Assembly: GCA_951406725.2 (NCBI GenBank)
Contig: OX597843.1
Coordinates: forward strand, 10,416,001 to 10,480,000
Origin: Octopus vulgaris
Lineage: Eukaryota
Reading direction: 5' to 3'
DNA: 64,000 nt
Each line of letters starts with the position of its first letter. Position 1 is the stretch's first letter. Position numbers and translations under genes: made by a program. Below are positions 10,786 through 35,468 of this stretch, piece by piece. The notes beneath the pieces were generated by a model. It made no database searches and was not told the origin of the DNA. It saw nothing but the letters and a program-made list of their open reading frames with translations.

Positions 10786-10856
<71 letters not shown>
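9497..10856 (-). mobile_element. Probable non-autonomous Helitron-like element
   Basis: CTAG end with adjacent CCCGGCGTTACCCG hairpin similar to the 1864 element; far end inferred from TTTTATATA..TAGA. Confidence 0.5.
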
Positions 10857-11146
10857 TACACACACACATGCACACATACAAAGATAAATTGATAGATACA
10901 ACTGAGTGAGCAAACAAAAATATGAGACACAGCCTAGTGCTTTTTTATGTTGATAAGCCTAGTACTTACTCTATTAGTTTGTTCTTGTGAAACCAGTAAG
11001 TTATGTGGATGTAAATAAGTGAACAGCAGTTGTGAAGCAGTGATGAGGGCGAAACACAGAGACAAAGACACACACATACACTTACATATATACATACATA
11101 TATATACGATTTATTTGTTACAGTTCCTGTCTACGAAATCCATATA

Positions 11147-12840
11147 TATTGTTGTTGGCATCCTTTTTGTCTCGGGAGACAATGGAGTGGCGCATAAAAT
11201 AATCTTGTCCGGCTTTTACATTTCATGTCCTAATACATCTCTTGCTGTGGCTGTGTAGTCCTATCCGGGACAAACACTCCCTCTGGCAGGTGCCGTAAAT
11301 GTAGCGAAGACTTTGCCTGACTGGTTGTAATGTCATAGTTTCTTGTTGACGTATTTTCTTGTCTTTCCATTTCTCCTTTCTCACTATGTCACTCCTTTGT
11401 GTTCCCTCTTTCACGGTACGTCGCCAATCTCCACGGTTGCTGGCAACTGCTTCCCAGTTGGTAATATTGATGTTGTAGGCATTCATGTCCCTTTTGCAAA
11501 CATCCTTGTATCGTAAGAACGGTCTTCCCACAGACCTAGTGCCCCTAGCAAGCTCTCCGTTGAGTATGTCCTTGGGGATTCTGCCATCTTCCATACGGCT
11601 AACATGTCCAAGCCATCTCATACGTCTTTGTGTGAAGAGTGCAAACATGCTTGGTATTCCTGCTTGCTTGAGGACATCTTTGTTAGGGACATGATTCTGC
11701 CATTTGATGCGATGGATTTTCCGGAGACAGCGCAGGTGAAAGATATTTAGGCGACGTATGGCGTCGTATGGCGTCGTATGGCGTGTGTATGGCGTCAAAG
11801 TCATACAGTAGAGTGCTAAGTACACATGCCTAGTAAATCTTCATTTTTGTGGTCTTGGTCAGCTTATTGTTGTCCCATGCGCGTTTGGTGAGTTGGGCCA
11901 TCACAGCAGCTGCCTTGCCAATGCGTATATTGAGCTCAGCATCAAGGGATAGGTTGTAGGTGACGGTAGAGCCAAGATAGGTAAACTTCTCCACCTCCTA
12001 TGATCTGTGGTTTCCAATATGTATGTTTGGGATGTCCGATGTAGCCTGACCCATGATGTTGGTCTTCTTGAGGCTGATAACTAAGCCAAAGTTGCCAAAT
12101 GCTTGCTCAAAACAGTTGCTGTGCCTTCGTAGGGCTTCTTCTGTGTGTGATACCAGAGCGGCATCATCAGCAAATAGCATCTCCTTGATCAGGATCCTTC
12201 TGAAATTTTGGTCTTGGCACGCAGACGCGAGAGATTGAACAGTTCCCCATCACTTCTACTGTGCAGAAACACTCCATCATCTGATGTCTCAAAGGCATGT
12301 GACAGCAGCAGCGTGAAGAAGATGCCAAATAATGTAGGAGCAAGGACACAACATTGCTCTACCCCATTTTTTATTTGGAAGGCGGCTGATGTTGAACCAT
12401 TGTGCTGTATGGTGCCTTGCATATTAGCATGGAATGATTTTATGATCCTCAGCAGCTTTGGTGGACATCCGATTTTTTGGAGCAGGATGAAGAGGCCTTT
12501 TCTACTTACCAAGTCAAAGCCCTTTGTCAGATCAATGAAGGCCATATATAATGGCATGTTCTGCTCTCTGGACTTCTGAAGTTGGCGTATGGAGAATATC
12601 ATGTCAATAGTTGATCTGCTTCTAAAGCCACACTGCGATTCTGGATAAATTCGAGAAGCAATTAGTTGCAGCCTGGACAGGATAATGCAAGCAGAGGCCA
12701 TTCCAACTGTGCTTAGAAGAGATATTCCACGGTAATTGTTACAATCATCACGGTCACTTTTATTTTTGTAAAGCGTAATGATGTTAGCATCCCGCATATT
12801 CTGAGGGACTGTACCCTCTTACCTGCACTGACACAGAAGT
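11147..12840 (-). pseudogene. Decayed, 5'-truncated RTE-clade LINE (RT and C-terminal region)
   Basis: Frameshifted pieces: MRDANIITLYKNK..NNYRGISLLS, PESQCGFR, FIDLTKGFD, MLFADDAAL, WLGHVSRMEDGRIPKDIL, SRIGLHSH; short 3' UTR with hairpin and CAA-repeat tail. Confidence 0.92.
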
Positions 12841-14170
12841 AGCCAAGACCTGGTCTAGGCGGTGGCTATCCTTGAAAGGGAGGGCGGAGGTGGCCAATGT
12901 GTTTATCGCATCGGTTATCATCTACCGCCTTTCCGTCGTTCCATGCCCTGATTCGTGGTTGACCAAGTTGGAAAGACAGCTCTTCTACTTCCTGTGGAAG
13001 GGCAGGAAACCACTTGTGAAACGCTCTACTTGCTGTCAACAACCGTTAAAGGGTGGGCTAGGGATGCCTTGGCTGATGATGCGCAGACATGCGCTGAGGT
13101 TAAGACATCTGTGGCTCTACCTGGATGGTGAACGGGTGTGGTCTCCGTTAGCAAAACTGATGTTTCCCAAGTTCACTAGTTTCGGTGGATGGGAAACCTG
13201 GTTGAATCGTAGATCGAAACTCGGTACATGGTATACGGAGTGTCGAAAGGCCCTCCTGCTATTCCGTCGCTCGGGCAACGCCTGCGGTGGGGGTTCCACC
13301 ACATTCTTCTATAGAGGGTTGGTAGAGGCGGAATGTGAAGACACCTTGGGGAAACCCTGGGTCTCGACGATAATCAGCTGGCTAGTCTGTTCCGACGTAC
13401 GTTCGGGCCGAAGACTCTGGACAACTTCCAGAAGTCTCTGGCATGGCAATGCTACAGAGGAGCTCTACCTGTTCGGGATAAACTCGCAAGGCACGGTGGC
13501 CAAGACAGTCCGATGTGTCCAAGATGCGGGCGGGATAGGGAAACCGTCCCGCACGCTATTGTTCATTGTTCGGACGTGTCTGAGGTGTGGGTTTATGCCG
13601 AACAGCTGTTGTCAAGCACACGAAGAGTACAGCTGTCGACTGAGTGTATTAAAAAAAATTGACCCACCAGATTTCCTCGCGAAAGAAGGTAAGACTTGTT
13701 TTCTCGTTGTGGTAGCAATTGCGAAGGAGGTGATATGGAAGACGAGAATGAAAGGTATACGGTCAGGCAAGTTCATATCCGGCCCTGGGTTGATGAACTA
13801 CTTCATCTACCACCTGAAAAGGAAGATAGGGCTGGAGAGAAAATGCCTGACTAAAAGAGTGTATGAAGAACGATGGAAGGATGTAGCACGGAAGTTGAGA
13901 ATGGATGACACCATATAAATGTAGATCAAAACGAAACCAAAAGTATCAGTGGTGAGGCGGGGCTCGTGGGGTCCGAGCTGAACCCGCCCCCACTCCACCT
14001 GTAGTGTCTTCCGGTCTGTTTTTTCTCATTCGATTTTTATAATTTTTGCAATTTTTGTAAATTTTTGAAATTTTTAAACTCATACTTTTGTAACCTCATA
14101 CGTGAATCTGACCCCACATCAGGTTGTATTGTCCCCTCTTTGTTGGCCCCTTGTGGGTAATAATAAAAGA
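12838..14170 (+). mobile_element. Tx1-like element copy 0, 5'-truncated (3' part of ORF2 plus 3' UTR)
   Basis: Matches the full copies from AGTAGCCAAGACC onward; ORF2 stop at 13918; two compensating homopolymer indels. Confidence 0.95.
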
Positions 14171-14404
14171 GAACCCGACAGGACGTTACTTTGACTTATT
14201 CATTGATATTCAAAAACGAAACGTGAGTTTTTTTGTCTGAAATAGTGTTGTTGAATTGAAAGTTAGTAGTTTATTGTTGCTGTGTTAATATTGTTATTTT
14301 GTGTCTTTTCAATAAGACGGTTAGTGGCCTTCGCGCGAAGGTTGTGTACGTAGTTCCCCCCCCGTGGGGGAATTATTGTGTGCCTTCGTGTACGAAACAC
14401 ATCC

Positions 14405-14435
<31 letters not shown>

Positions 14436-14461
14436 TTTCTACTAACGGCTGCAAAGCCAGA

Positions 14462-15875
14462 ATGTCTTTGGAAGGCAGTGAATGCAAACTGGAAGGAAAA
14501 TTCGAAATGGATTTCCCCATTACCTATTCACCCATCTCAGGTGATGAAGAATCTCAAACCTCGGGTGAGAGAAGCACGCCGGCGGTGACACCGGAAAAAG
14601 AATCGGCGGTAACGCCAGAACAAAAGGCCCCAACAAAGAAGTTTGCGGAAGTTGTTGGACGCAAACAGAAAGATATAGATATAGAAAACCTAGAGAAATA
14701 TGAAGACCTTCTAAAGAAAGAAGGAAATGAAATTGCAGTGAAAAAAGATATGGAAAAAAAGGAAGAGATAGAAAAGAAAAAGAATTATATACAAGACATA
14801 TAGCACGACTACAAAAAGCATACAAAAAGTGGAAGAATGCAAAATAGAGGAGTGCCTGAAGACAATCAGAAAAGATATCACTTATATAAACAGAGGAAGA
14901 CGGTACGGAACAGTAGAAGTGAGGTTCAGAACAGAAGAAATAGCTAAGAAGCTATCCACAGAACCTCAGAAAGCGGGAAATCTAGTCCTTCTACCCTTGT
15001 ACAAAGGAAGAAGGACTTCAAAGATAGTAATGAGAAATATTCCCCCAGAGGCAGACGCCTCATGCCTGGTGGCGGCAGTGATGCTGGGCCTGAAAGAAAA
15101 AATCAACATCCTCCAAGCTACAGTGGAGGAGGAGGGATTTTGGCAGGGCCAGATCATAACAATGGCTATACAAGCAGAGGCCCAGACTCTGGAAGAAATA
15201 CCAGAGGTGCTGAGGCTAGATGAGGAGGAGCGAGTTCTAGTATTTGTAGAAGGAAGAAAACCGAGGTGCTTCGGCTGCGGAAAGAAGGGGCACGTGAGAG
15301 CGGAGTGTCAACCAAAACCGCAGGTAGAAGAACCATCGGAGAAAGAAGAAACGGAGGAAAAAAAGGAAACCAAAGAGGTGGAAAAAGCTGCAGAAAAGGA
15401 AAAAGAAAACGAAAAAGAGGAGGGGTGGTCTAAAGTTACCAAAAAAAAACGGAAAACTGAAACCACCCCTCAAGAAGAAGAAAACCTAAAGAAAAGGAAA
15501 GAGGTTACTTCTTCATTTATGGCCATTAAGGCTACTAACAACAGACTTGTCAATGTGTTGGCAGCCATGGCCAAGGTGGAACGTATAAGGAAGATGAAAG
15601 ACTTCATCATATATAAAATAGGCCGGAAGGACTACAGGAGGATAAAATCCGAGTTCTTCCACGACGTGGGCCCTCTGAGACTGGACATGTCTCCATATCT
15701 ATACGAGGGCCTACGTCGGACTCCCCCACGAGCCAAAGAAAAAAAAATGAAGAAGAAGGCGAAACCGCCGAAAAAGCCAAACTACCGATATAAGGTAAGT
15801 GATGAACTACATTTGTGTTGGTTGTTTAAATGTGCGCGGCCTGGGATCAAGCGGGAAGCAAGGTCGCTTCCTTAA
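14462..15875 (+). CDS. ORF1 gag-like nucleic-acid-binding protein, ~470 aa (one +1 A frameshift near 14780)
   Basis: Starts MSLEGSECK; zinc knuckle CFGCGKKGHVRAEC (CX2CX4HX4C) followed by E/K-rich tail, typical of Tx1 ORF1. Confidence 0.85.
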
Positions 15876-18800
15876 TGATATCAGGTCGCGCAATTTGGAT
15901 GTTATTGTTGCTACAGAAACCCGGTTAAAGGGGCCAAGAGATCTACTCCCACTGTTTGACGGCTACGAGAGTTTTTTCTCTCCTGGCAGTCCTGCAGGCG
16001 GGAGTGGGGTGTTGGTCCTACTAAAAAGAAACCGGGTTTTGAGAAAAAGTTAATTTTTTCAGACCCAGAAGGTAGGCTGGTCGTCATGGATTTGACGTTC
16101 AGTAACGGTAAAGTTATCAGACTGGTTGCAATTTACGCACCCTGCAGTAATAATGGGCAAAGTGATTATTATCGTGATCTAGAGAACTTTCTCGGTACTT
16201 CGCATTCAATAGTTGTGCTAGGAGACTTTAACACAATTTGCAAAGCGGATGTAGATTGTGTTGGCTCGAATGATAGAAAAGGTAACACATGCTTCCTGGA
16301 ACTGCTAAGCCGCTTTGAGCTAGCAGATCCTTATAGGTTGGAATTTCCGAACGCTCCATTGTGGACATGGTCAAACAGCGACGGATCTTCCAGGTCATAC
16401 ATAGATAGAATTCTAATTAGAAAGGTAGACAGTAAAATAGCTAAGCGTCCACAGTTTTACCCGATCAGCTACAGTGATCATAAAATGGTCACTTGTAAGC
16501 TTGACATAGATAAGGTTAGAAAGAGAGGATCCGGTTACTGGAAACTTAATACGTCCCTTTTGGCGATTAAGGAGTACAGAGACCGGATTAGGACCATAAT
16601 TCAGAGGGCGCTGTCTGGTGCCATCATTAATAACAAATGGTGGTACGCCCTCAAACGAGCCATCAAGTTTGAGTCTATTAGATATAGCATAGGAGTAGTG
16701 TCTAGAGAGGCTAGAAGGGAAACTACTCTAGTTAAGGAATTAGAGGAAGCCATGAAAACTGGCTCTGCGGCTCAGGTGGCGTCCAAGAGACTGGTGTTAA
16801 ACCAGCACCTCGAGGCCAAACACATGGGTTGCATTGTCAGGGCTAGAATCCGTCATATGGGATGTGAAGGAATCAACGCCGTGAGATGGGCCCGAGTGGT
16901 GGAAGCCCGGAATGGCAACGATGCCACGATTCGATCTTTGAAGAACCAACAAGGTGAGTTGATAGACGAACCCGAGGAGATGTGTGAGGCCTTTCAGGAG
17001 CACTTCGCTCAGCTTTTCGGTGAGTGCGGCGGGCTGGATAGGAGGAGGGCCTTTACGGACCTACTCGACGGGCTGCCGCGCTTATCGGGGCGAGATGCGG
17101 AGGGCTGTGAAGGGCCAATCACGCCTGAGGAGGTGGTGGAGGCAATGGCGGACTGCGGCGCGGGCAAGGCGCCGGGTTTGGATGGTCTACCCTACGAGTT
17201 ATATAAGAATATGCCAGACTTGTTCGGGCACCTACTGGCGGAAGTCTATGCGAACTGGCAGCAGAACGGGTTGATACCCAGATCTGTGCGCCGGGGAGTG
17301 GTGACTCTCGTCAGAAAGGACCCGAGCAAGGGGGAGTGCATTGATAATTTCAGGCCCATCACTCTGCTAAACACAGAGTTGAAGATTTTGGCCAAAGTGT
17401 TATCGAAAAGATTGGCGCGTGTCGCGGATGGTCTGATCGGGGAGGCACAGACATGTGCCGTTCCGGGCAGAACCATTCAGGATAATCTCCATCTAATGCG
17501 GTACACTATAGAGGGGTTTAATAGTGATTCTGGCAAGGGTGGGGCACTGGTCCATTTAGACCAATCCAAAGCTTTTGATAGGGTCGACCATCGTTACCTG
17601 GTGTCTGCTCTGGCACAGTTCGGGCTGGGCCTTGGCTTCCTCAGGTGGATTATCCAAATTTACGACAACATCGACTCGGTAGTTCGGGTGAACGGCTTCT
17701 TGTCGAAGCCGTTCAAAATCAAACGCTCGGTTCGTCAAGGGTGTCCGCTCTCCCCGCTTTTGTACGTGATGGCTCTTGAGCCATTACTGCGAAAACTGAG
17801 CGGCATCCCGAGACAGCCAGGTAATGGAAAATCAGTGTCAGCGTACGCGGACGACATCACCATCATCGTGACCGAAATGGACCACCTATGTAAAGTAGGC
17901 AAGGCCATAGAGGATTACGAGACGGTGACAGGAGCAAAAGTTAATCGCGAAAAGTCAGTCGGCTTGCAACTCGGCACCTGGAGAGGCAAGTCGATGCCTC
18001 CTGACAGCGTCGTGGGACGTTGGACGGAGGGTCCGATTAAACTGCTAGGGGTCTGGTTCGGTCCAGACCTCCAAATAGAGAAGAATTGGGGCGAAGTAAC
18101 GAGCAAGGTGGCTGCAGTAGCCAAGACCTGGTCTAGGCGGTGGCTATCCTTGAAAGGGAGGGCGGAGGTGGCCAATGTGTTTATCGCATCGGTTATCATC
18201 TACCGCCTTTCCGTCGTTCCATGCCCTGATTCGTGGTTGACCAAGTTGGAAAGACAGCTCTTCTACTTCCTGTGGAAGGGCAGGAAACCACTTGTGAAAC
18301 GCTCTACTTGCTGTCAACAACCGTTAAAGGGTGGGCTAGGGATGCCTTGGCTGATGATGCGCAGACATGCGCTGAGGTTAAGACATCTGTGGCTCTACCT
18401 GGATGGTGAACGGGTGTGGTCTCCGTTAGCAAAACTGATGTTTCCCAAGTTCACTAGTTTCGGTGGATGGGAAACCTGGTTGAATCGTAGATCGAAACTC
18501 GGTACATGGTATACGGAGTGTCGAAAGGCCCTCCTGCTATTCCGTCGCTCGGGCAACGCCTGCGGTGGGGGTTCCACCACATTCTTCTATAGAGGGTTGG
18601 TAGAGGCGGAATGTGAAGACACCTTGGGGAAACCCTGGGTCTCGACGATAATCAGCTGGCTAGTCTGTTCCGACGTACGTTCGGGCCGAAGACTCTGGAC
18701 AACTTCCAGAAGTCTCTGGCATGGCAATGCTACAGAGGAGCTCTACCTGTTCGGGATAAACTCGCAAGGCACGGTGGCCAAGACAGTCCGATGTGTCCAA

Positions 18801-19195
18801 GATGCGGGCGGGATAGGGAAACCGTCCCGCACGCTATTGTTCATTGTTCGGACGTGTCTGAGGTGTGGGTTTATGCCGAACAGCTGTTGTCAAGCACACG
18901 AAGAGTACAGCTGTCGACTGAGTGTATTAAAAAAATTGACCCACCAGATTTCCTCGCGAAAGAAGGTAAGACTTGTTTTCTCGTTGTGGTAGCAATTGCG
19001 AAGGAGGTGATATGGAAGACGAGAATGAAAGGTATACGGTCAGGCAAGTTCATATCCGGCCCTGGGTTGATGAACTACTTCATCTACCACCTGAAAAGGA
19101 AGATAGGGCTGGAGAGAAAATGCCTGACTAAAAGAGTGTATGAAGAACGATGGAAGGATGTAGCACGGAAGTTGAGAATGGATGACACCACATAA
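15802..19195 (+). pseudogene. ORF2 copy 1, APE-RT, with two homopolymer frameshifts (~16040, ~18629); may be sequencing errors
   Basis: Same as the intact ORF2 except T5>T4 and G5>G4. Confidence 0.85.
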
Positions 19196-19681
19196 ATGTA
19201 GATCAAAACGAAACCAAAAGTATCAGTGGTGAGGCGGGGCTCGTGGGGTCCGAGCTGAACCCGCCCCCACTCCACCTGTAGTGTCTTCCGGTCTGTTTTT
19301 TCTCATTCGATTTTTATAATTTTTGCAATTTTTGTAAATTTTTGAAATTTTTAAACTCATACTTTTGTAACCTCATACGTGAATCTGACCCCACATCAGG
19401 TTGTATTGTCCCCTCTTTGTTGGCCCCTTGTGGGTAATAATAAAAGAGAACCCGACAGGACGTTACTTTGACTTATTCATTGATATTCAAAAACGAAACG
19501 TGAGTTTTTTTGTCTGAAATAGTGTTGTGGAATTGAAAGTTAGTAGTTTATTGTTGCTGTGTTAATATTGTTATTTTGTGTCTTTTCAATAAGACGGTTA
19601 GTGGCCTTCGCGCGAAGGTTGTGTACGTAGTTCCCCCCCCGTGGGGGAATTATTGTGTGCCTTCGTGTACGAAACACATCC

Positions 19682-19713
<32 letters not shown>

Positions 19714-19739
19714 TTTCTACTAACGGCTGCAAAGCCAGA

Positions 19740-21150
19740 ATGTCTTTGGAAGGCAGTGAATGCAAACTGGAAGGAAAATTCGAAATGGATTTCCCCATTA
19801 CCTATTCACCCATCTCAGGTGATGAAGAATCTCAAACCTCGGGTGAGAGAAGCACGCCGGCGGTGACACCGGAAAAAGAATCGGCGGTAACGCCAGAACA
19901 AAAGGCCCCAACAAAGAAGTTTGCGGAAGTTGTTGGACGCAAACAGAAAGATATAGATATAGAAAACCTAGAGAAATATGAAGACCTTCTAAAGAAAGAA
20001 GGAAATGAAATTGCAGTGAAAAAAGATATGGAAAAAAAGGAAGAGATAGAAAAGAAAAGAATTATATACAAGACATATAGCACGACTACAAAAAGCATAC
20101 AAAAAGTGGAAGAATGCAAAATAGAGGAGTGCCTGAAGACAATCAGAAAAGATATCACTTATATAAACAGAGGAAGACGGTTCGGAACAGTAGAAGTGAG
20201 GTTCAGAACCGAAGAAATAGCTAAGAAGCTATCCACAGAACCTCAGAAAGCGGAAATCTAGTCCTTCTACCCTTGTACAAAGGAAGAAGGACTTCAAAGA
20301 TAGTAATGAGAAATATTCCCCCAGAGGCAGACGCCTCATGCCTGGTGGCGGCAGTGATGCTGGGCCTGAAAGAAAAAATCAACATCCTCCAAGCTACAGT
20401 GGAGGAGGAGGGATTTTGGCAGGGCCAGATCATAACAATGGCTATACAAGCAGAGGCCCAGACTCTGGAAGAAATACCAGAGGTGCTGAGGCTAGATGAG
20501 GAGGAGCGAGTTCTAGTATTTGTAGAAGGAAGAAAACCGAGGTGCTTCGGCTGCGGAAAGAAGGGGCACGTGAGAGCGGAGTGTCAACCGAAACCGCAGG
20601 CAGAAGAACCGTCGGAGAAAGAAGAAACGGAGGAAAAAAAGGAAACCAAAGAGGTGGAAAAAGCTGCAGAAAAGGAAAAAGAAAACGAAAAAGAGGAGGG
20701 GTGGTCTAAAGTTACCAAAAAAAAACGGAAAACTGAAACCACCCCTCAAGAAGAAGAAAACCTAAAGAAAAGGAAAGAGGTTACTTCTTCATTTATGGCC
20801 ATTAAGGCTACTAACAACAGACTTGTCAATGTGTTGGCAGCCATGGCCAAGGTGGAACGTATAAGGAAGATGAAAGACTTCATCATATATAAAATAGGCC
20901 GGAAGGACTACAGGAGGATAAAATCCGAGTTCTTCCACGACGTGGGCCCTCTGAGACTGGACATGTCTCCATATCTATACGAGGGCCTACGTCGGACTCC
21001 CCACGAGCCAAAGAAAAAAAAATGAAGAAGAAGGCGAAACCGCCGAAAAAGCCAAACTACCGATATAAGGTAAGTGATGAACTACATTTGTGTTGGTTGT
21101 TTAAATGTGCGCGGCCTGGGATCAAGCGGGAAGCAAGGTCGCTTCCTTAA
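19740..21150 (+). CDS. ORF1 copy 2 (frameshifts near 20252 and 21000)
   Basis: Homologous to copy 1 ORF1; CCHC knuckle intact. Confidence 0.75.
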
Positions 21151-24472: not shown

Positions 24473-25013
24473 ATGTAGATCAAAACGAAACCAAAAGTAT
24501 CAGTGGTGAGGCGGGGCTCGTGGGGTCCGAGCTGAACCCGCCCCCACTCCACCTGTAGTGTCTTCCGGTCTGTTTTTTCTCATTCGATTTTTATAATTTT
24601 TGCAATTTTTGTAAATTTTTGAAATTTTTAAACTCATACTTTTGTAACCTCATACGTGAATCTGACCCCACATCAGGTTGTATTGTCCCCTCTTTGTTGG
24701 CCCCTTGTGGGTAATAATAAAAGAGAACCCGACAGGACGTTACTTTGACTTATTCATTGATATTCAAAAACGAAACGTGAGTTTTTTTGTCTGAAATAGT
24801 GTTGTTGAATTGAAAGTTAGTAGTTTATTGTTGCTGTGTTAATATTGTTATTTTGTGTCTTTTCAATAAGACGGTTAGTGGCCTTCGCGCGAAGGTTGTG
24901 TACGTAGTTCCCCCCCGTGGGGGAATTATTGTGTGCCTTCGTGTACGAAACACATCCAAAAAAAAAAAAAAAAAAAAAAAAAAATATTTTCTACTAACGG
25001 CTGCAAAGCCAGA

Positions 25014-26426
25014 ATGTCTTTGGAAGGCAGTGAATGCAAACTGGAAGGAAAATTCGAAATGGATTTCCCCATTACCTATTCACCCATCTCAGGTGATGAA
25101 GAATCTCAAACCTCGGGTGAGAGAAGCACGCCGGCGGTGACACCGGAAAAAGAATCGGCGGTAACGCCAGAACAAAAGGCCCCAACAAAGAAGTTTGCGG
25201 AAGTTGTTGGACGCAAACAGAAAGATATAGATATAGAAAACCTAGAGAAATATGAAGACCTTCTAAAGAAAGAAGGAAATGAAATTGCAGTGAAAAAAGA
25301 TATGGAAAAAAAGGAAGAGATAGAAAAGAAAAGAATTATATACAAGACATACAGCACGACTACAAAAAGCATACAAAAAGTGGAAGAATGCAAAATAGAG
25401 GAGTGCCTGAAGACAATCAGAAAAGATATCACTTATATAAACAGAGGAAGACGGTTCGGAACAGTAGAAGTGAGGTTCAGAACAGAAGAAATAGCTAAGA
25501 AGCTATCCACAGAACCTCAGAAAGCGGAAATCTAGTCCTTCTACCCTTGTACAAAGGAAGAAGGACTTCAAAGATAGTAATGAGAAATATTCCCCCAGAG
25601 GCAGACGCCTCATGCCTGGTGGCGGCAGTGATGCTGGGCCTGAAAGAAAAAATCAACATCCTCCAAGCTACAGTGGAGGAGGAGGGATTTTGGCAGGGCC
25701 AGATCATAACAATGGCTATACAAGCAGAGGCCCAGACTCTGGAAGAAATACCAGAGGTGCTGAGGCTAGATGAGGAGGAGCGAGTTCTAGTATTTGTAGA
25801 AGGAAGAAAACCGAGGTGCTTCGGCTGCGGAAAGAAGGGGCACGTGAGAGCGGAGTGTCAACCGAAACCGCAGGTAGAAGAACCGTCGGAGAAAGAAGAA
25901 ACGGAGGAAAAAAAGGAAACCAAAGAGGTGGAAAAAGCTGCAGAAAAGGAAAAAGAAAACGAAAAAGAGGAGGGGTGGTCTAAAGTTACCAAAAAAAAAC
26001 GGAAAACTGAAACCACCCCTCAAGAAGAAGAAAACCTAAAGAAAAGGAAAGAGGTTACTTCTTCATTTATGGCCATTAAGGCTACTAACAACAGACTTGT
26101 CAATGTGTTGGCAGCCATGGCCAAGGTGGAACGTATAAGGAAGATGAAAGACTTCATCATATATAAAATAGGCCGGAAGGACTACAGGAGGATAAAATCC
26201 GAGTTCTTCCACGACGTGGGCCCTCTGAGACTGGACATGTCTCCATATCTATACGAGGGCCTACGTCGGACTCCCCCACGAGCCAAAGAAAAAAAAAATG
26301 AAGAAGAAGGCGAAACCGCCGAAAAAGCCAAACTACCGATATAAGGTAAGTGATGAACTACATTTGTGTTGGTTGTTTAAATGTGCGCGGCCTGGGATCA
26401 AGCGGGAAGCAAGGTCGCTTCCTTAA
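25014..26426 (+). CDS. ORF1 copy 3 (frameshifts near 25527 and 26298)
   Basis: Homologous to copy 1 ORF1. Confidence 0.75.
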
Positions 26427-29400
26427 TGATATCAGGTCGCGCAATTTGGATGTTATTGTTGCTACAGAAACCCGGTTAAAGGGGCCAAGAGATCTACTCC
26501 CACTGTTTGACGGCTACGAGAGTTTTTTCTCTCCTGGCAGTCCTGCAGGCGGGAGTGGGGTGTTGGTCCTACTAAAAAGAAACCGGGTTTTTGAGAAAAA
26601 GTTAATTTTTTCAGACCCAGAAGGTAGGCTGGTCGTCATGGATTTGACGTTCAGTAACGGTAAAGTTATCAGACTGGTTGCAATTTACGCACCCTGCAGT
26701 AATAATGGGCAAAGTGATTATTATCGTGATCTAGAGAACTTTCTCGGTACTTCGCATTCAATAGTTGTGCTAGGAGACTTTAACACAATTTGCAAAGCGG
26801 ATGTAGATTGTGTTGGCTCGAATGATAGAAAAGGTAACACATGCTTCCTGGAACTGCTAAGCCGCTTTGAGCTAGCAGATCCTTATAGGTTGGAATTTCC
26901 GAACGCTCCATTGTGGACATGGTCAAACAGCGACGGATCTTCCAGGTCATACATAGATAGAATTCTAATTAGAAAGGTAGACAGTAAAATAGCTAAGCGT
27001 CCACAGTTTTACCCGATCAGCTACAGTGATCATAAAATGGTCACTTGTAAGCTTGACATAGATAAGGTTAGAAAGAGAGGATCCGGTTACTGGAAACTTA
27101 ATACGTCCCTTTTGGCGATTAAGGAGTACAGAGACCGGATTAGGACCATAATTCAGAGGGCGCTGTCTGGTGCCATCATTAATAACAAATGGTGGTACGC
27201 CCTCAAACGAGCCATCAAGTTTGAGTCTATTAGATATAGCATAGGAGTAGTGTCTAGAGAGGCTAGAAGGGAAACTACTCTAGTTAAGGAATTAGAGGAA
27301 GCCATGAAAACTGGCTCTGCGGCTCAGGTGGCGTCCAAGAGACTGGTGTTAAACCAGCACCTCGAGGCCAAACACATGGGCTGCATTGTCAGGGCTAGAA
27401 TCCGTCATATGGGATGTGAAGGAATCAACGCCGTGAGATGGGCCCGAGTGGTGGAAGCCCGGAATGGCAACGATGCCACGATTCGATCTTTGAAGAACCA
27501 ACAAGGTGAGTTGATAGACGAACCCGAGGAGATGTGTGAGGCCTTTCAGGAGCACTTCGCTCAGCTTTTCGGTGAGTGCGGCGGACTGGATAGGAGGAGG
27601 GCCTTTACGGACCTACTCGACGGGCTGCCGCGCTTATCGGGGCGAGATGCGGAGGGCTGTGAAGGGCCAATCACGCCTGAGGAGGTGGTGGAGGCAATGG
27701 CGGACTGCGGCGCGGGCAAGGCGCCGGGTTTGGATGGTCTACCCTACGAGTTATATAAGAATATGCCAGACTTGTTCGGGCACCTACTGGCGGAAGTCTA
27801 TGCGAACTGGCAGCAGAACGGGTTGATACCCAGATCTGTGCGCCGGGGAGTGGTGACTCTCGTCAGAAAGGACCCGAGCAAGGGGGAGTGCATTGATAAT
27901 TTCAGGCCCATCACTCTGCTAAACACAGAGTTGAAGATTTTGGCCAAAGTGTTATCGAAAAGATTGGCGCGTGTCGCGGATGGTCTGATCGGGGAGGCAC
28001 AGACATGTGCCGTTCCGGGCAGAACCATTCAGGATAATCTCCATCTAATGCGGTACACTATAGAGGGGTTTAATAGTGATTCTGGCAAGGGTGGGGCACT
28101 GGTCCATTTAGACCAATCCAAAGCTTTTGATAGGGTCGACCATCGTTACCTGGTGTCTGCTCTGGCACAGTTCGGGCTGGGCCTTGGCTTCCTCAGGTGG
28201 ATTATCCAAATTTACGACAACATCGACTCGGTAGTTCGGGTGAACGGCTTCTTGTCGAAGCCGTTCAAAATCAAACGCTCGGTTCGTCAAGGGTGTCCGC
28301 TCTCCCCGCTTTTGTACGTGATGGCTCTTGAGCCATTACTGCGAAAACTGAGCGGCATCCCGAGACAGCCAGGTAATGGAAAATCAGTGTCAGCGTACGC
28401 GGACGACATCACCATCATCGTGACCGAAATGGACCACCTATGTAAAGTAGGCAAGGCCATAGAGGATTACGAGACGGTGACAGGAGCAAAAGTTAATCGC
28501 GAAAAGTCAGTCGGCTTGCAACTCGGCACCTGGAGAGGCAAGTCGATGCCTCCTGACAGCGTCGTGGGACGTTGGACGGAGGGTCCGATTAAACTGCTAG
28601 GGGTCTGGTTCGGTCCAGACCTCCAAATAGAGAAGAATTGGGGCGAGGTAACGAGCAAGGTGGCTGCAGTAGCCAAGACCTGGTCTAGGCGGTGGCTATC
28701 CTTGAAAGGGAGGGCGGAGGTGGCCAATGTGTTTATCGCATCGGTTATCATCTACCGCCTTTCCGTCGTTCCATGCCCTGATTCGTGGTTGACCAAGTTG
28801 GAAAGACAGCTCTTCTACTTCCTGTGGAAGGGCAGGAAACCACTTGTGAAACGCTCTACTTGCTGTCAACAACCGTTAAAGGGTGGGCTAGGGATGCCTT
28901 GGCTGATGATGCGCAGACATGCGCTGAGGTTAAGACATCTGTGGCTCTACCTGGATGGTGAACGGGTGTGGTCTCCGTTAGCAAAACTGATGTTTCCCAA
29001 GTTCACTAGTTTCGGTGGATGGGAAACCTGGTTGAATCGTAGATCGAAACTCGGTACATGGTATACGGAGTGTCGAAAGGCCCTCCTGCTATTCCGTCGC
29101 TCGGGCAACGCCTGCGGTGGGGGTTCCACCACATTCTTCTATAGAGGGTTGGTAGAGGCGGAATGTGAAGACACCTTGGGGGAAACCCTGGGTCTCGACG
29201 ATAATCAGCTGGCTAGTCTGTTCCGACGTACGTTCGGGCCGAAGACTCTGGACAACTTCCAGAAGTCTCTGGCATGGCAATGCTACAGAGGAGCTCTACC
29301 TGTTCGGGATAAACTCGCAAGGCACGGTGGCCAAGACAGTCCGATGTGTCCAAGATGCGGGCGGGATAGGGAAACCGTCCCGCACGCTATTGTTCATTGT

Positions 29401-29748
29401 TCGGACGTGTCTGAGGTGTGGGTTTATGCCGAACAGCTGTTGTCAAGCACACGAAGAGTACAGCTGTCGACTGAGTGTATTAAAAAAATTGACCCACCAG
29501 ATTTCCTCGCGAAAGAAGGTAAGACTTGTTTTCTCGTTGTGGTAGCAATTGCGAAGGAGGTGATATGGAAGACGAGAATGAAAGGTATACGGTCAGGCAA
29601 GTTCATATCCGGCCCTGGGTTGATGAATTACTTCATCTACCACCTGAAAAGGAAGATAGGGCTGGAGAGAAAATGCCTGACTAAAAGAGTGTATGAAGAA
29701 CGATGGAAGGATGTAGCACGGAAGTTGAGAATGGATGACACCATATAA
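26353..29748 (+). CDS. ORF2 APE-RT-CCHC, intact
   Basis: Uninterrupted ORF with the same motifs as copy 2. Confidence 0.97.
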   Translation: MNYICVGCLNVRGLGSSGKQGRFLNDIRSRNLDVIVATETRLKGPRDLLPLFDGYESFFSPGSPAGGSGVLVLLKRNRVFEKKLIFSDPEGRLVVMDLTFSNGKVIRLVAIYAPCSNNGQSDYYRDLENFLGTSHSIVVLGDFNTICKADVDCVGSNDRKGNTCFLELLSRFELADPYRLEFPNAPLWTWSNSDGSSRSYIDRILIRKVDSKIAKRPQFYPISYSDHKMVTCKLDIDKVRKRGSGYWKLNTSLLAIKEYRDRIRTIIQRALSGAIINNKWWYALKRAIKFESIRYSIGVVSREARRETTLVKELEEAMKTGSAAQVASKRLVLNQHLEAKHMGCIVRARIRHMGCEGINAVRWARVVEARNGNDATIRSLKNQQGELIDEPEEMCEAFQEHFAQLFGECGGLDRRRAFTDLLDGLPRLSGRDAEGCEGPITPEEVVEAMADCGAGKAPGLDGLPYELYKNMPDLFGHLLAEVYANWQQNGLIPRSVRRGVVTLVRKDPSKGECIDNFRPITLLNTELKILAKVLSKRLARVADGLIGEAQTCAVPGRTIQDNLHLMRYTIEGFNSDSGKGGALVHLDQSKAFDRVDHRYLVSALAQFGLGLGFLRWIIQIYDNIDSVVRVNGFLSKPFKIKRSVRQGCPLSPLLYVMALEPLLRKLSGIPRQPGNGKSVSAYADDITIIVTEMDHLCKVGKAIEDYETVTGAKVNREKSVGLQLGTWRGKSMPPDSVVGRWTEGPIKLLGVWFGPDLQIEKNWGEVTSKVAAVAKTWSRRWLSLKGRAEVANVFIASVIIYRLSVVPCPDSWLTKLERQLFYFLWKGRKPLVKRSTCCQQPLKGGLGMPWLMMRRHALRLRHLWLYLDGERVWSPLAKLMFPKFTSFGGWETWLNRRSKLGTWYTECRKALLLFRRSGNACGGGSTTFFYRGLVEAECEDTLGETLGLDDNQLASLFRRTFGPKTLDNFQKSLAWQCYRGALPVRDKLARHGGQDSPMCPRCGRDRETVPHAIVHCSDVSEVWVYAEQLLSSTRRVQLSTECIKKIDPPDFLAKEGKTCFLVVVAIAKEVIWKTRMKGIRSGKFISGPGLMNYFIYHLKRKIGLERKCLTKRVYEERWKDVARKLRMDDTI

Positions 29749-30290
29749 ATGTAGATCAAAACGAAACCAAAAGTATCAGTGGTGAGGCGGGGCTCGTGGG
29801 GTCCGAGCTGAACCCGCCCCCACTCCACCTGTAGTGTCTTCCGGTCTGTTTTTTCTCATTCGATTTTTATAATTTTTGCAATTTTTGTAAATTTTTGAAA
29901 TTTTTAAACTCATACTTTTGTAACCTCATACGTGAATCTGACCCCACATCAGGTTGTATTGTCCCCTCTTTGTTGGCCCCTTGTGGGTAATAATAAAAGA
30001 GAACACCGATAGGACGTTACTTTGACTTATTCATTGATTCTCAAAAACGAAACGTGAGTTTTTTGTCTGAAATAGTGTTGTTAAATTGAAAGTTAATAGT
30101 TTATTGTTGCTGTGTTAATATTGTTATTTTGTGTCTTTTCAATAAGACGGTTAGTGGCCTTCGCGCGAAGGTTGTGTACGTAGTTCCCCCCCGTGGGGGA
30201 ATTATTGTGTGCCTTCGTGTACGAAACACATTCAAAAACAAAAAAAAAAAAAAAAAAAAAATATTTTCTACTAACGGCTGCAAAGCCAGA

Positions 30291-31702
30291 ATGTCTTTGG
30301 AAGGCAGTGAATGCAAACTGGAAGGAAAATTCGAAATGGATTTCCCCATTACCTATTCACCCATCTCAGGTGATGAAGAATCTCAAACCTCGGGTGAGAG
30401 AAGCACGCCGGCGGTGACACCGGAAAAAGAATCGGCGGTAACGCCAGGACAAAAGGCCCCAACAAAGAAGTTTGCGGAAGTTGTTGGACGCAAACAAAAA
30501 AATATAGATATAGAAAACCTAGAGAAATATGAAGACCTTCTAAAGAAAGAAGGAAATGAAATTGCAGTGAAAAAAGATATGGAAAAAAAGGAAGAGATAG
30601 AAAATAAAAGAATTATATACAAGACATACAGCATGACTACAAAAAGCATACAAAAAGTGGAAGAATGCAAAATAGAGGAGTGCCTGAAGACAATCAGAAA
30701 AGATATCACTTATATAAACAGAGGAAGGCGGTTCGGAACAGTAGAAGTGAGGTTCAGAACCGAAGAAATAGCTAAGAAGCTATCCACAGAACCTCAGAAA
30801 GCGGGAAATCTAGTCCTTCTACCCTTGTACAAAGGAAGAAGGACTTCAAAGATAGTAATGAGAAATATTCCCCCAGAGGCAGACGCCTCATGCCTGGTGG
30901 CGGCAGTGATGCTGGGCCTGAAAGAAAAATCAACATCCTCCAAGCTACAGTGGAGGAGGAGGGATTTTGGCAGGGCCAGATCATAACAATGGCTATACAA
31001 GCAGAGGCCCAGACTCTGGAAGAAATACCAGAGGTGCTGAGGCTAGATGAGGAGGAGCGAGTTCTAGTATTTGTAGAAGGAAGAAAACCGAGGTGCTTCG
31101 GCTGCGGAAAGAAGGGGCACGTGAGAGCGGAGTGTCAACCAAAACCGCAGGTAGAAGAACCGTCGGAGAAAGAAGAAACGGAGGAAAAAAAGGAAACCAA
31201 AGAGGTGGAAAAAGCTGCAGAAAAGGAAAAAGAAAACGAAAAAGAGGAGGGGTGGTCTAAAGTTACCAAAAAAAAACGGAAAACTGAAACCACCCCTCAA
31301 GAAGAAGAAAACCTAAAGAAAAGGAAAGAGGTTACTTCTTCATTTATGGCCATTAAGGCTACTAACAACAGACTTGTCAATGTGTTGGCAGCCATGGCCA
31401 AGGTGGAACGTATAAGGAAGATGAAAGACTTCATCATATATAAAATAGGCCGGAAGGACTACAGGAGGATAAAATCCGAGTTCTTCCACGACGTGGGCCC
31501 TCTGAGACTGGACATGTCTCCATATCTATACGAGGGCCTACGTCGGACTCCCCCACGAGCCAAAGAAAAAAAAATGAAGAAGAAGGCGAAACCGCCGAAA
31601 AAGCCAAACTACCGATATAAGGTAAGTGATGAACTACATTTGTGTTGGTTGTTTAAATGTGCGCGGCCTGGGATCAAGCGGGAAGCAAGGTCGCTTCCTT
31701 AA
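30291..31702 (+). CDS. ORF1 copy 4 (one -1 A frameshift near 30929)
   Basis: Homologous to copy 1 ORF1. Confidence 0.8.
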
Positions 31703-34700
31703 TGATATCAGGTCGCGCAATTTGGATGTTATTGTTGCTACAGAAACCCGGTTAAAGGGGCCAAGAGATCTACTCCCACTGTTTGACGGCTACGAGAGTT
31801 TTTTCTCTCCTGGCAGTCCTGCAGGCGGGAGTGGGGTGTTGGTCCTACTAAAAAGAAACCGGGTTTTTGAGAAAAAGTTAATTTTTTCAGACCCAGAAGG
31901 TAGGCTGGTCGTCATGGATTTGACGTTCAGTAACGGTAAAGTTATCAGACTGGTTGCAATTTACGCACCCTGCAGTAATAATGGGCAAAGTGATTATTAT
32001 CGTGATCTAGAGAACTTTCTCGGTACTTCGCATTCAATAGTTGTGCTAGGAGACTTTAACACAATTTGCAAAGCGGATGTAGATTGTGTTGGCTCGAATG
32101 ATAGAAAAGGTAACACATGCTTCCTGGAACTGCTAAGCCGCTTTGAGCTAGCAGATCCTTATAGGTTGGAATTTCCGAACGCTCCATTGTGGACATGGTC
32201 AAACAGCGACGGATCTTCCAGGTCATACATAGATAGAATTCTAATTAGAAAGGTAGACAGTAAAATAGCTAAGCGTCCACAGTTTTACCCGATCAGCTAC
32301 AGTGATCATAAAATGGTCACTTGTAAGCTTGACATAGATAAGGTTAGAAAGAGAGGATCCGGTTACTGGAAACTTAATACGTCCCTTTTGGCGATTAAGG
32401 AGTACAGAGACCGGATTAGGACCATAATTCAGAGGGCGCTGTCTGGTGCCATCATTAATAACAAATGGTGGTACGCCCTCAAACGAGCCATCAAGTTTGA
32501 GTCTATTAGATATAGCATAGGAGTAGTGTCTAGAGAGGCTAGAAGGGAAACTACTCTAGTTAAGGAATTAGAGGAAGCCATGAAAACTGGCTCTGCGGCT
32601 CAGGTGGCGTCCAAGAGACTGGTGTTAAACCAGCACCTCGAGGCCAAACACATGGGTTGCATTGTCAGGGCTAGAATCCGTCATATGGGATGTGAAGGAA
32701 TCAACGCCGTGAGATGGGCCCGAGTGGTGGAAGCCCGGAATGGCAACGATGCCACGATTCGATCTTTGAAGAACCAACAAGGTGAGTTGATAGACGAACC
32801 CGAGGAGATGTGTGAGGCCTTTCAGGAGCACTTCGCTCAGCTTTTCGGTGAGTGCGGCGGGCTGGATAGGAGGAGGGCCTTTACGGACCTACTCGACGGG
32901 CTGCCGCGCTTATCGGGGCGAGATGCGGAGGGCTGTGAAGGGCCAATCACGCCTGAGGAGGTGGTGGAGGCAATGGCGGACTGCGGCGCGGGCAAGGCGC
33001 CGGGTTTGGATGGTCTACCCTACGAGTTATATAAGAATATGCCAGACTTGTTCGGGCACCTACTGGCGGAAGTCTATGCGAACTGGCAGCAGAACGGGTT
33101 GATACCCAGATCTGTGCGCCGGGGAGTGGTGACTCTCGTCAGAAAGGACCCGAGCAAGGGGGAGTGCATTGATAATTTCAGGCCCATCACTCTGCTAAAC
33201 ACAGAGTTGAAGATTTTGGCCAAAGTGTTATCGAAAAGATTGGCGCGTGTCGCGGATGGTCTGATCGGGGAGGCACAGACATGTGCCGTTCCGGGCAGAA
33301 CCATTCAGGATAATCTCCATCTAATGCGGTACACTATAGAGGGGTTTAATAGTGATTCTGGCAAGGGTGGGGCACTGGTCCATTTAGACCAATCCAAAGC
33401 TTTTGATAGGGTCGACCATCGTTACCTGGTGTCTGCTCTGGCACAGTTCGGGCTGGGCCTTGGCTTCCTCAGGTGGATTATCCAAATTTACGACAACATC
33501 GACTCGGTAGTTCGGGTGAACGGCTTCTTGTCGAAGCCGTTCAAAATCAAACGCTCGGTTCGTCAAGGGTGTCCGCTCTCCCCGCTTTTGTACGTGATGG
33601 CTCTTGAGCCATTACTGCGAAAACTGAGCGGCATCCCGAGACAGCCAGGTAATGGAAAATCAGTGTCAGCGTACGCGGACGACATCACCATCATCGTGAC
33701 CGAAATGGACCACCTATGTAAAGTAGGCAAGGCCATAGAGGATTACGAGACGGTGACAGGAGCAAAAGTTAATCGCGAAAAGTCAGTCGGCTTGCAACTC
33801 GGCACCTGGAGAGGCAAGTCGATGCCTCCTGACAGCGTCGTGGGACGTTGGACGGAGGGTCCGATTAAACTGCTAGGGGTCTGGTTCGGTCCAGACCTCC
33901 AAATAGAGAAGAATTGGGGCGAGGTAACGAGCAAGGTGGCTGCAGTAGCCAAGACCTGGTCTAGGCGGTGGCTATCCTTGAAAGGGAGGGCGGAGGTGGC
34001 CAATGTGTTTATCGCATCGGTTATCATCTACCGCCTTTCCGTCGTTCCATGCCCTGATTCGTGGTTGACCAAGTTGGAAAGACAGCTCTTCTACTTCCTG
34101 TGGAAGGGCAGGAAACCACTTGTGAAACGCTCTACTTGCTGTCAACAACCGTTAAAGGGTGGGCTAGGGATGCCTTGGCTGATGATGCGCAGACATGCGC
34201 TGAGGTTAAGACATCTGTGGCTCTACCTGGATGGTGAACGGGTGTGGTCTCCGTTAGCAAAACTGATGTTTCCCAAGTTCACTAGTTTCGGTGGATGGGA
34301 AACCTGGTTGAATCGTAGATCGAAACTCGGTACATGGTATACGGAGTGTCGAAAGGCCCTCCTGCTATTCCGTCGCTCGGGCAACGCCTGCGGTGGGGGT
34401 TCCACCACATTCTTCTATAGAGGGTTGGTAGAGGCGGAATGTGAAGACACCTTGGGGGAAACCCTGGGTCTCGACGATAATCAGCTGGCTAGTCTGTTCC
34501 GACGTACGTTCGGGCCGAAGACTCTGGACAACTTCCAGAAGTCTCTGGCATGGCAATGCTACAGAGGAGCTCTACCTGTTCGGGATAAACTCGCAAGGCA
34601 CGGTGGCCAAGACAGTCCGATGTGTCCAAGATGCGGGCGGGATAGGGAAACCGTCCCGCACGCTATTGTTCATTGTTCGGACGTGTCTGAGGTGTGGGTT

Positions 34701-35024
34701 TATGCCGAACAGCTGTTGTCAAGCACACGAAGAGTACAGCTGTCGACTGAGTGTATTAAAAAAATTGACCCACCAGATTTCCTCGCGAAAGAAGGTAAGA
34801 CTTGTTTTCTCGTTGTGGTAGCAATTGCGAAGGAGGTGATATGGAAGACGAGAATGAAAGGTATACGGTCAGGCAAGTTCATATCCGGCCCTGGGTTGAT
34901 GAACTACTTCATCTACCACCTGAAAAGGAAGATAGGGCTGGAGAGAAAATGCCTGACTAAAAGAGTGTATGAAGAACGATGGAAGGATGTAGCACGGAAG
35001 TTGAGAATGGATGACACCATATAA
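31629..35024 (+). CDS. ORF2 APE-RT-CCHC, intact
   Basis: Uninterrupted ORF with all catalytic motifs. Confidence 0.97.
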   Translation: MNYICVGCLNVRGLGSSGKQGRFLNDIRSRNLDVIVATETRLKGPRDLLPLFDGYESFFSPGSPAGGSGVLVLLKRNRVFEKKLIFSDPEGRLVVMDLTFSNGKVIRLVAIYAPCSNNGQSDYYRDLENFLGTSHSIVVLGDFNTICKADVDCVGSNDRKGNTCFLELLSRFELADPYRLEFPNAPLWTWSNSDGSSRSYIDRILIRKVDSKIAKRPQFYPISYSDHKMVTCKLDIDKVRKRGSGYWKLNTSLLAIKEYRDRIRTIIQRALSGAIINNKWWYALKRAIKFESIRYSIGVVSREARRETTLVKELEEAMKTGSAAQVASKRLVLNQHLEAKHMGCIVRARIRHMGCEGINAVRWARVVEARNGNDATIRSLKNQQGELIDEPEEMCEAFQEHFAQLFGECGGLDRRRAFTDLLDGLPRLSGRDAEGCEGPITPEEVVEAMADCGAGKAPGLDGLPYELYKNMPDLFGHLLAEVYANWQQNGLIPRSVRRGVVTLVRKDPSKGECIDNFRPITLLNTELKILAKVLSKRLARVADGLIGEAQTCAVPGRTIQDNLHLMRYTIEGFNSDSGKGGALVHLDQSKAFDRVDHRYLVSALAQFGLGLGFLRWIIQIYDNIDSVVRVNGFLSKPFKIKRSVRQGCPLSPLLYVMALEPLLRKLSGIPRQPGNGKSVSAYADDITIIVTEMDHLCKVGKAIEDYETVTGAKVNREKSVGLQLGTWRGKSMPPDSVVGRWTEGPIKLLGVWFGPDLQIEKNWGEVTSKVAAVAKTWSRRWLSLKGRAEVANVFIASVIIYRLSVVPCPDSWLTKLERQLFYFLWKGRKPLVKRSTCCQQPLKGGLGMPWLMMRRHALRLRHLWLYLDGERVWSPLAKLMFPKFTSFGGWETWLNRRSKLGTWYTECRKALLLFRRSGNACGGGSTTFFYRGLVEAECEDTLGETLGLDDNQLASLFRRTFGPKTLDNFQKSLAWQCYRGALPVRDKLARHGGQDSPMCPRCGRDRETVPHAIVHCSDVSEVWVYAEQLLSSTRRVQLSTECIKKIDPPDFLAKEGKTCFLVVVAIAKEVIWKTRMKGIRSGKFISGPGLMNYFIYHLKRKIGLERKCLTKRVYEERWKDVARKLRMDDTI

Positions 35025-35468
35025 ATGTAGATCAAAACGAAACCAAAAGTATCAGTGGTGAGGCGGGGCTCGTGGGGTCCGAGCTGAACCCGCCCCCACT
35101 CCACCTGTAGTGTCTTCCGGTCTGTTTTTTCTCATTCGATTTTTATAATTTTTGCAATTTTTGTAAATTTTTGAAATTTTTAAACTCATACTTTTGTAAC
35201 CTCATACGTGAATCTGACCCCACATCAGGTTGTATTGTCCCCTCTTTGTTGGCCCCTTGTGGGTAATAATAAAAGAAAATCACCATATAGTGCCTTACTG
35301 CTTTCTGCTGGATTTTACCTCGAGATAGGAACCCTGAGGAAGGAGGGCTGAATTTCGAATACTTCGTACAACAAACGGCTGCAGGTTAGGAAAAAAAATT
35401 TAATCGCCTCTTTCAATTTAGGTTTTTATTTTTCATGCTTATATTCGTATTTCATTGTTATGTTTATA

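Follow-up and report, generated by a model that had tools for sequence, protein, structure and literature searches.

The stretch of DNA analysed here, referred to as the window, comprises 64,000 nucleotides of the Octopus vulgaris genome and lies at 10.4 Mb of the 21.2-Mb contig OX597843.1 (G000:C30:10416001-10480000; other loci are named below in the same notation, by contig and megabase). It contains five same-strand copies of a long interspersed nuclear element (LINE) arranged head to tail, one of 1.3 kb (U1) and four of 5.28 kb (U2 to U5), inside a second mobile element that we term the carrier (Table 1). The tail positions and the extent of U1 agree with the original prediction, made from these letters alone, of five same-orientation copies of which the 5'-most is truncated. 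U2 to U5 are 5277, 5277, 5276, and 5276 bp long and differ from one another by 0.13-0.36% in substitutions. Among themselves, U2-U4 are 7-9 substitutions apart, and U5 stands 15-16 from each of these; U5 is likely the founder copy. No assembly gap interrupts positions 12838-35276, and the five-copy array at C30:10.4 Mb is real. From sequence comparison across the genome, we consider it likely that such arrays begin by repeated target-primed insertion of the LINE at a hotspot in the carrier, the site being renewed by each duplication, and are then amplified locally. The hotspot setting had escaped the original prediction, as had the interruption of open reading frame 1 (ORF1) in every full copy and the loss of 1.76 kb of flank at the left edge.

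The LINE is a young element of the L1/Tx1 type, with features that suggest a place in the Tx1 clade. It has those of the L1 group, namely an N-terminal APE endonuclease, a reverse transcriptase, a C-terminal zinc-binding region, a separate ORF1, target-site duplications of 13-19 bp at truncated and full copies, and 5'-truncated dispersed copies. ORF2, with 1132 codons, is open in U3, U4, and U5, the three intact frames that had been predicted, and broken in U2. It matches PF03372 (APE), PF00078 (RT), and PF13966 (zf-RVT) in Pfam, and its closest solved structure is human L1 ORF2p (E 4e-71, with R2 at 1e-24). A CCHC zinc knuckle in ORF1 is a feature of the Tx1 clade; the knuckle was read directly here, the Pfam zf-CCHC matches being weak (E 0.08 and 0.2). 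Multicopy targets in Tx1 have been recognized where more than 20% of flanks agree (PMC4494074), and 11 of the 18 youngest loci of the window family lie in the hotspot, with 3 further ones in the heads of sister families. No named Tx1 protein occurs among the 120 listed homologs, 10 clusters, and Atlas matches; the listed homologs include an Argonauta protein that is 65% identical.

One-base indels in base runs interrupt ORF1 in each of the four full copies. All seven frame breaks called in U2-U5 are of this kind, as are 58 of the 70 frame-shifting indels of young copies genome-wide. ORF1 is open in other natural copies. Because contigs from other sequencing runs have a longer base run at 30924 and at 31565, the full copies may be intact despite the called breaks. 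The LINE is young and probably still active. None of the runs listed as containing the array sequence is a known RNA run, and the cover by X11, whose RNA nature is a guess, was left out of account. Sequencing runs under seven other organism labels (X4, X6, X7, X9, and X12-X14) share 0.49-0.59 of the words of window positions 30001-36500, with X4 closely covering the LINE and carrier arm; these runs represent close relatives or mislabels.

To place the array in its genomic context, we used a 27-base tail motif as a census marker, which gave 65 exact and 62 one-mismatch matches (35 of the latter were listed). On their 3' sides, 27 of the exact tails are followed immediately by a same-family head, 9 by the shared hotspot (directly or via a stub or sister element), 3 by a sister-family head, 5 by another shared flank, and 21 by other sequence. 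Of the 43 youngest tails (≥97% identity to U5 over the 3' part), 36 reside in carriers, at 11 loci, and 3 in sister heads. The proposal that this family builds interstitial arrays thus holds genome-wide. There are nine same-family arrays: that of the window (5 copies), those at C22:14.22 Mb (4), C22:14.18 Mb (3), and C27:31.87 Mb (3, cut by a gap), the two-copy arrays at C24, C27:19.66 Mb, C30:13.36 Mb, and C10:43.63 Mb, and the longest, which spans C27:32.95-32.99 Mb and contig C58 and reaches 12 copies over ≈63 kb. In the 12-mer, C27 breaks off at unit base 1015 and C58 starts at base 1016. Three arrays end in assembly gaps. All arrays are interstitial and lie inside carriers, with none in the telomeric placement of HeT-A/TART. 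At C10:43.615-43.645 Mb (L181-L183), two stacks are fused head to head, the inverted one sharing its end flank with a dimer on C15. Single array copies also carry patches from more distant families, namely copy 2 of L168-L169 on C22 (≈79% identity) and copy 9 of C58 (85 private changes), which point to conversion or template switching between families.

The carrier is a non-autonomous cut-and-paste DNA transposon of ≈20 kb with inverted ends of 268 bp at 95-97% identity. An 8-bp duplication surrounds it exactly at C26 and C3:96.0 Mb and at 7 of 8 bases at C24, and is absent at 2 of the 5 carriers checked; duplications of 8 bp occur in hAT, Merlin, P, and Mutator elements. No long frame that could encode a transposase was found in the arms of the C8 carrier, and none in three end-bounded elements, which thus yielded no autonomous partner. 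The same upstream flank precedes all nine 5'-edge copies with an exact head motif, across 6 chromosomes, and extends 4-15 kb to a common end in 8 of the 10 loci examined. The right arm contains microsatellites and a 70-bp minisatellite and reaches an inverted copy of the left end after ≈8.3 kb; an end at the microsatellite 4.4 kb downstream was considered and rejected on this basis. A 29-base motif from the carrier end has 90 exact matches in the genome.

The hotspot within this carrier is a landing pad of variable content. A 20-mer directly right of the insertion point has 36 matches genome-wide, and among the 30 that were fetched, 11 pads are empty, 2 contain 3' stubs 30-40 bases in length, and 17 contain Tx1-like elements that range from the window family to 70%-identical and ORF1-only elements. 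Empty pads measure 27 to 100 bases and are composed of related short modules. Comparison of the empty pad L132 with the filled C8 and C24 carriers reveals a 16-bp duplication, ATCGATACTCAAAAAC. Since the pads total a few kilobases in a 2.8-Gb genome, the presence of 11 of the 18 youngest loci in the hotspot is not due to chance. Ten carriers with the window LINE family were rejected as a single clade among 34 (approximately unbiased test, p 0.0007), in an analysis that left out L133 for its short homology and defined the group by content after a first tree had been viewed. As the filled carriers do not form one clade, the window family has probably filled carriers more than once. No Rfam match that would mark the hotspot as an RNA gene was obtained up to E 5 in window positions 34900-38000. 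At C22:14.245-14.249 Mb (L096:90-3560), a 1.74-kb ORF1-only element with a Tx1-like tail is itself present as two head-to-tail copies; this pair shares its pad with the four-copy array, on the 3' side of the latter, and its relatives fill pads L130, L136, and L139.

All four joints in the window read GGGTAATAATAAAAGA followed directly by GAAC, as originally described. However, four differences within the first 40 bases set joint 4 apart from joints 1-3, and the joints are therefore not all alike. Poly(A) is indeed absent from every window copy. The canonical tail end TAATAATAAAA plus two bases (CA or GA) occurs without poly(A) in 44 of the 64 tails examined, dispersed ones included, so that the absence is a family trait. 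The joints had also been described as free of a spacer or target-site duplication, but their first 13-14 bases are a target duplication elsewhere: the 13-mer after the tail, GAACCCGACAGGA at joints 1-3 and GAACACCGATAGGA at joint 4, is the duplication that lies on both sides of the C30:13.36 Mb dimer, there as GAACCCGATAGGA. The four-copy array at C22:14.22-14.25 Mb is flanked on either side by the 17-mer TCACCATATAGTGCCTT, which also occurs in each of its three joints, and the C24 and C27:19.66 Mb arrays each have a 16-mer in the joint and the flanks. These three arrays display the signature of R1-type double insertion, in which the joint duplication equals the array flank; for the window it is seen only via the comparison with C30:13.36 Mb. 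Duplications of 13-17 bp are present at C22, C24, C27:19.66, C30:7.96, and C30:13.36, and those of dispersed truncated copies and carrier insertions fall within the 13-19 bp given above. The arrays comprise at least six different joint types, one of which is common to C30:13.36 and C10:43.63 Mb. Independent contigs from run X8 contain a tail-to-head joint with 9 bases between, and a second junction in X1 and X8 contigs is either a joint or a 5' flank.

The LINE head itself resembles the pad. Head bases 1 to ≈47 align to empty pads, with 0 of 500 shuffles scoring as high for L135 and L157 and 3, 10, and 17 of 500 for three other pads against the U5 head, whereas controls (head bases 61-120 and the tail) do not align. 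Two loci, C15 and C10:76.66 Mb, have a copy inserted into the head of a sister family and bordered by 16-bp duplications; no carrier flank was seen around the C15 locus. Self-targeting just upstream of the element's own 5' end had been one of two routes first proposed. This route is partly right, although the target lies within the first ≈50 head bases and in the host transposon instead. The associated idea that growth stops once a headless copy lands is not supported, as 3' stubs of 17 nt and 51 nt each carry two copies stacked on their 5' side (C30:13.36 and C10:43.64 Mb). A truncated copy at the 5' edge is not a rule either, as the nine other 5'-edge loci with an exact head motif all start with a full head.

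Together, these features suggest how the arrays may grow. A new copy would enter on the 5' side, either at the duplication or at the head module, in which case arrays would extend 5'-ward and the 3'-most copy would be the founder. Heads may have acquired their target modules from transcripts that started upstream of the element, so that each full copy would carry its own target, and pairing between the head module and the cut target may help 5' joins to be complete and seamless. Long uniform runs would then owe their length to local amplification, whether through unequal exchange or through re-insertion of copies from the same array; these two routes are not separable here. Independent insertion is evident from the variety of joint types, from the mixture of families, and from the C30:13.36 Mb dimer, in which 29 substitutions separate the two copies but only 8 and 11 separate them from copies at other loci. 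That arrays grew on the 5' side is suggested by the 3'-most copy, which stands apart from the other copies both in the window and at C22, and by private changes that number 0, 10, and 12 from 5' to 3' at C22:14.18 Mb. Local amplification is evident from alleles confined to one array (five of them to C22 copies 1-3 and one to U2-U4), from an ORF1 indel (at 25525 in U4) found only in U3 and U4 (2 of the 34 copies with the motif), and from neighbours in the 12-mer that are 3-5 substitutions apart.

Several observations weigh against repeated insertion at a preferred site. Four of the 43 youngest tails are found in neither carriers nor heads, and the same holds for most of the older tails. The endonuclease preference, which is deduced from 26 distinct flanks alone, is short and loose. 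All 27 same-family joints enter full heads, whereas truncation affects about half of the copies that lie dispersed. Independent insertion by itself does not predict this, and either DNA-level duplication or head-module annealing would explain it. The 12-copy array is without clear founder polarity. Most variants form a mosaic common to several loci, which may stem from gene conversion, template switching, or assembly polishing and which weakens arguments from lineage. The carrier tree is poorly resolved, with 18 of 32 branches open, and carrier-to-carrier conversion could also break monophyly. In the window, the 5' flank is lost and the duplication cannot be read on both sides, and the window's own joint type is not among the independent-run joints listed.

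The alternative that survives best is copying at the DNA level alone, in which a LINE without special site preference would have made one or two chance double insertions that carrier transposition spread and unequal exchange lengthened. The intact carrier ends and the 8-bp duplications in 3 of the 5 carriers checked fit such spreading, and the close neighbours in the 12-mer, the array-restricted alleles, the shared ORF1 indel, and the uniformly full heads fit such lengthening; unequal exchange or other DNA-level copying probably did lengthen arrays. As the whole explanation we consider it unlikely, given that the joint types lie at different positions, that several families occur at the same pad, that stubs are flanked by duplications of their own, that the filled carriers do not group as one clade, and that the C30:13.36 Mb dimer unites two lineages. 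Moreover, exchange acting alone on a dimer would yield copies of a single joint, whereas joint 4 is unlike joints 1-3.

Less probable still, and in our estimate quite unlikely, is that read-through RNA of at least two copies was reverse transcribed whole, or that read-through bases pair with the target and so set the preference. The lack of poly(A) in all copies, the joint type common to C30:13.36 and C10:43.63 Mb, and the requirement of R1Bm RNA for downstream target sequence (cited in PMC7265360) would be compatible with it. The C15 dimer lies within one 15-bp duplication, as this alternative would have it, but its first copy is bounded by an inner 16-bp duplication, and a 63-kb array would be far beyond any plausible single cDNA. 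Serial end-to-end template jumping in one insertion event, the second route of the original prediction, is very unlikely and is not needed, as the joints carry target duplications, families are mixed, and the copies of one dimer come from different lineages. Human L1 ORF2p forms concatemers by template jumping in vitro (PMC10830420), and joints within an array are often identical and their copies full length. The joints at C22, C24, and C27:19.66 nevertheless contain the flanking target duplication, which a jump to a new RNA would produce only if that RNA, too, started with the target. In addition, stubs and members of mixed families come with separate duplications, and the 3'-most copy differs from the others. 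Expansion of one or two copies by misassembly is the most remote of these alternatives, as the concentration of indels in base runs, as expected from noisy long reads, and the arrays that end in gaps are outweighed by the gap-free window array with both carrier arms in correct order, differences of 7-16 substitutions between copies, nine arrays that have joints of their own, a tail-to-head joint in independent contigs, and a 12-mer that continues base for base on an unplaced contig.

Repeated insertion into a mobile host has precedents. Tx1L inserts in the non-autonomous DNA transposon Tx1D of Xenopus laevis, and the crocodilian Tx1-Mar and Tx1-9_AMi insert in Mariner-N4_AMi and Harbinger elements, respectively (PMC4494074, PMC1950540, PMC6719617). 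Like these, the octopus element is an APE-RT LINE that prefers one place in a non-autonomous DNA transposon, with target duplications. It differs in its carrier (≈20 kb, with 268-bp ends and 8-bp duplications), in the several families that occupy one variable pad, in a looser preference, and in arrays of up to 12 copies, none being described for Tx1L or Tx1-Mar in the accessible portions of these sources. In the R1 tandem array of the Drosophila X chromosome, 33-nt rDNA duplications separate copies and expansion followed later (PMC5932611), and tandem SINEU-3 copies likewise sandwich a target-site duplication (PMC4494074). The octopus arrays resemble the R1 array in arising from repeated insertion at one site, in the target duplication between copies, and in later expansion, but their target is a mobile element instead of rDNA, and there are nine separate arrays. 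Their joints are nearly all tail-to-head, whereas most Drosophila non-LTR tandems are tail-to-internal (PMC5932611). Cnl1 of Cryptococcus, also of the L1 group, inserts into its own copies in tandem orientation (PMC9942834); its arrays are nested and subtelomeric, whereas those of the octopus are interstitial, with whole copies and a target in the head module shared with the host transposon. HeT-A, TART, and TAHRE also form head-to-tail same-strand arrays (PMC5932611, PMC6719617) but add to chromosome ends, unlike the internal octopus arrays, which are bounded by target duplications and by carrier on both sides. An octopus repeat annotation lists 13 recently active L1-Tx1 families, and its accessible portion does not mention arrays (PMC13282606).

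By analogy, the octopus arrays would work like Tx1L in Tx1D with R1-type stacking added, and repeated insertion at one target is already in print. Less usual are the stacking of several families on a single pad, their insertion into one another's heads, and the apparent shift in the preferred target. A LINE head with target modules used by sister families was not found in the literature searched, which included few subscription papers and excluded the supplements of PMC4494074 and PMC13282606. A site-preferring LINE would here turn a DNA transposon into tandem arrays, a route thought to seed satellites, and the genome offers a natural series from empty pad to stub, monomer, dimer, and 12-mer, with arrays of up to 63 kb. 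One family thereby makes two questions testable. One is how APE-type LINEs join their 5' ends, for which the head's copy of the target is a candidate means, and the other is whether changes in target preference arise from endonuclease loops or from pairing of RNA and target.

With regard to the latter, the preferred target seems to have shifted between subfamilies. With shared flanks collapsed and in small numbers, ATT follows the tail in 10 of 14 older copies (<94% identity) and in 0 of 12 younger ones, of which six continue with G and four with GAT. A flank starting ATT(C/T)CAGTC is shared by 13 of 64 tails, all of them older, and the one such locus that was read further has a Helitron-type frame (PF14214, E 1e-34) 1.8 kb on. 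We advance only tentatively, and with more doubt than conviction, the broader idea that a Tx1-like community writes its own landing pad, in which heads capture target duplications and become targets for the same and sister families while flank bases of the RNA, in addition to the endonuclease, steer landing. If true, it would amount to heritable retargeting by flank capture, and would explain why GAT-like modules of a DNA transposon follow the young copies whereas the Helitron-linked ATT follows older ones. At C4:99.53-99.55 Mb (L268-L269), an older stack of several Tx1-like elements ends 1.8 kb before a Helitron-type frame, and its 3' flank is the one that follows the 13 older tails.

The left edge of the window array is marked by a loss. 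The C8 carrier continues ≈1.77 kb past the base at which the window's carrier breaks, and ≈1.76 kb of carrier, the hotspot, and 3943 LINE bases, 5.7 kb altogether, are missing at this point. Because other carriers extend 1.76 kb past the break, U1 has lost its head together with the pad, presumably by deletion at or after insertion. The deletion may have accompanied a truncated insertion of U1, and is not the rule for these arrays.

Table 1. Coordinates of the LINE copies, their parts, and the surrounding carrier in the window.
Feature	Position	Strand	Remark
Carrier left arm	1..12837	+	94-98% to arms of carriers on C8, C24, C27, C30
Decayed LINE fragment, part of carrier	11223..12837	-	95-99% in other carriers
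Break point	12836..12839	+	carrier joined to LINE base 3944 via 2-nt match (AG)
U1, LINE 3' part	12838..14170	+	unit bases 3944-5276; 99.85% to U5
U2, full copy	14171..19447	+	one-base indels in ORF1 (14777) and ORF2 (16036, 18625)
Joint 1 linker GAACCCGACAGGA, target-duplication type	14171..14183	+	same at 19448, 24725
Target-like head module, ≈47 nt	14171..14217	+	repeated at front of U2-U5
U3, full copy	19448..24724	+	ORF2 open, 21074-24472; ORF1 indels 20251, 20998
U4, full copy	24725..30000	+	ORF2 open, 26350-29748; ORF1 indels 25525, 26289
U5, full copy	30001..35276	+	head unlike others; substitution counts against U2-U4 in text
ORF1 of U5	30291..31702	+	CX2CX4HX4C knuckle; interrupted near 30924
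ORF2 of U5	31626..35024	+	1132 codons; APE, RT, zf-RVT
3' end GGGTAATAATAAAAGA	35261..35276	+	without poly(A); CA instead of GA in most other copies
Target TCACCATATAGTGCCTT	35280..35296	+	right portion of carrier hotspot; matches C22:14.22-14.25 Mb array
Carrier right arm, to gap	35280..37883	+	95-99% to right arms on C8, C22, C24, C27, C30
Assembly gap	37884..37983

The carrier of the window begins outside it, its left inverted repeat starting 1.87 kb before the first base (G000:C30:10414129). The right inverted repeat was not found in the window, where the sequence past the gap is without carrier continuation. The left arm contains an internal duplication and inversion as well as old repeat fragments. 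One of these, the decayed LINE fragment of Table 1, which we take from its motifs to be RTE-like, was considered as an insertion into U1; this was rejected, as the piece is present in other carriers and belongs to the carrier. The 3.4-3.7-kb duplication and the inversion (window positions 231-7400) do not occur in other carriers.

Relatives of the LINE that are 28% identical offer further cases of possible repetition. In Patella caerulea, 14 accessions within KAK6191799-KAK6191823, mostly alternate numbers on one contig, are 97-100% alike and likely represent a local array of ≈12 copies, as judged from protein accessions alone. The 8.7-kb contig MDSQ01001115.1 has the same 107 bases at both ends and is either a circle or a collapsed tandem. 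Among 80 metagenome loci with distant relatives, mostly shorter than 10 kb, 3 have a direct repeat more than 3 kb apart, and no clear tail-head joint was seen. In the octopus carriers themselves, a fixed place ≈4.4-7 kb into the right arm is occupied by a different long microsatellite in each carrier (GAACT, AAGCC/TAAA, GCTGTT, or GCCAT), followed by a near-palindromic 70-bp minisatellite and then a 29-bp one (L094, L098, L102, L108, and L110).

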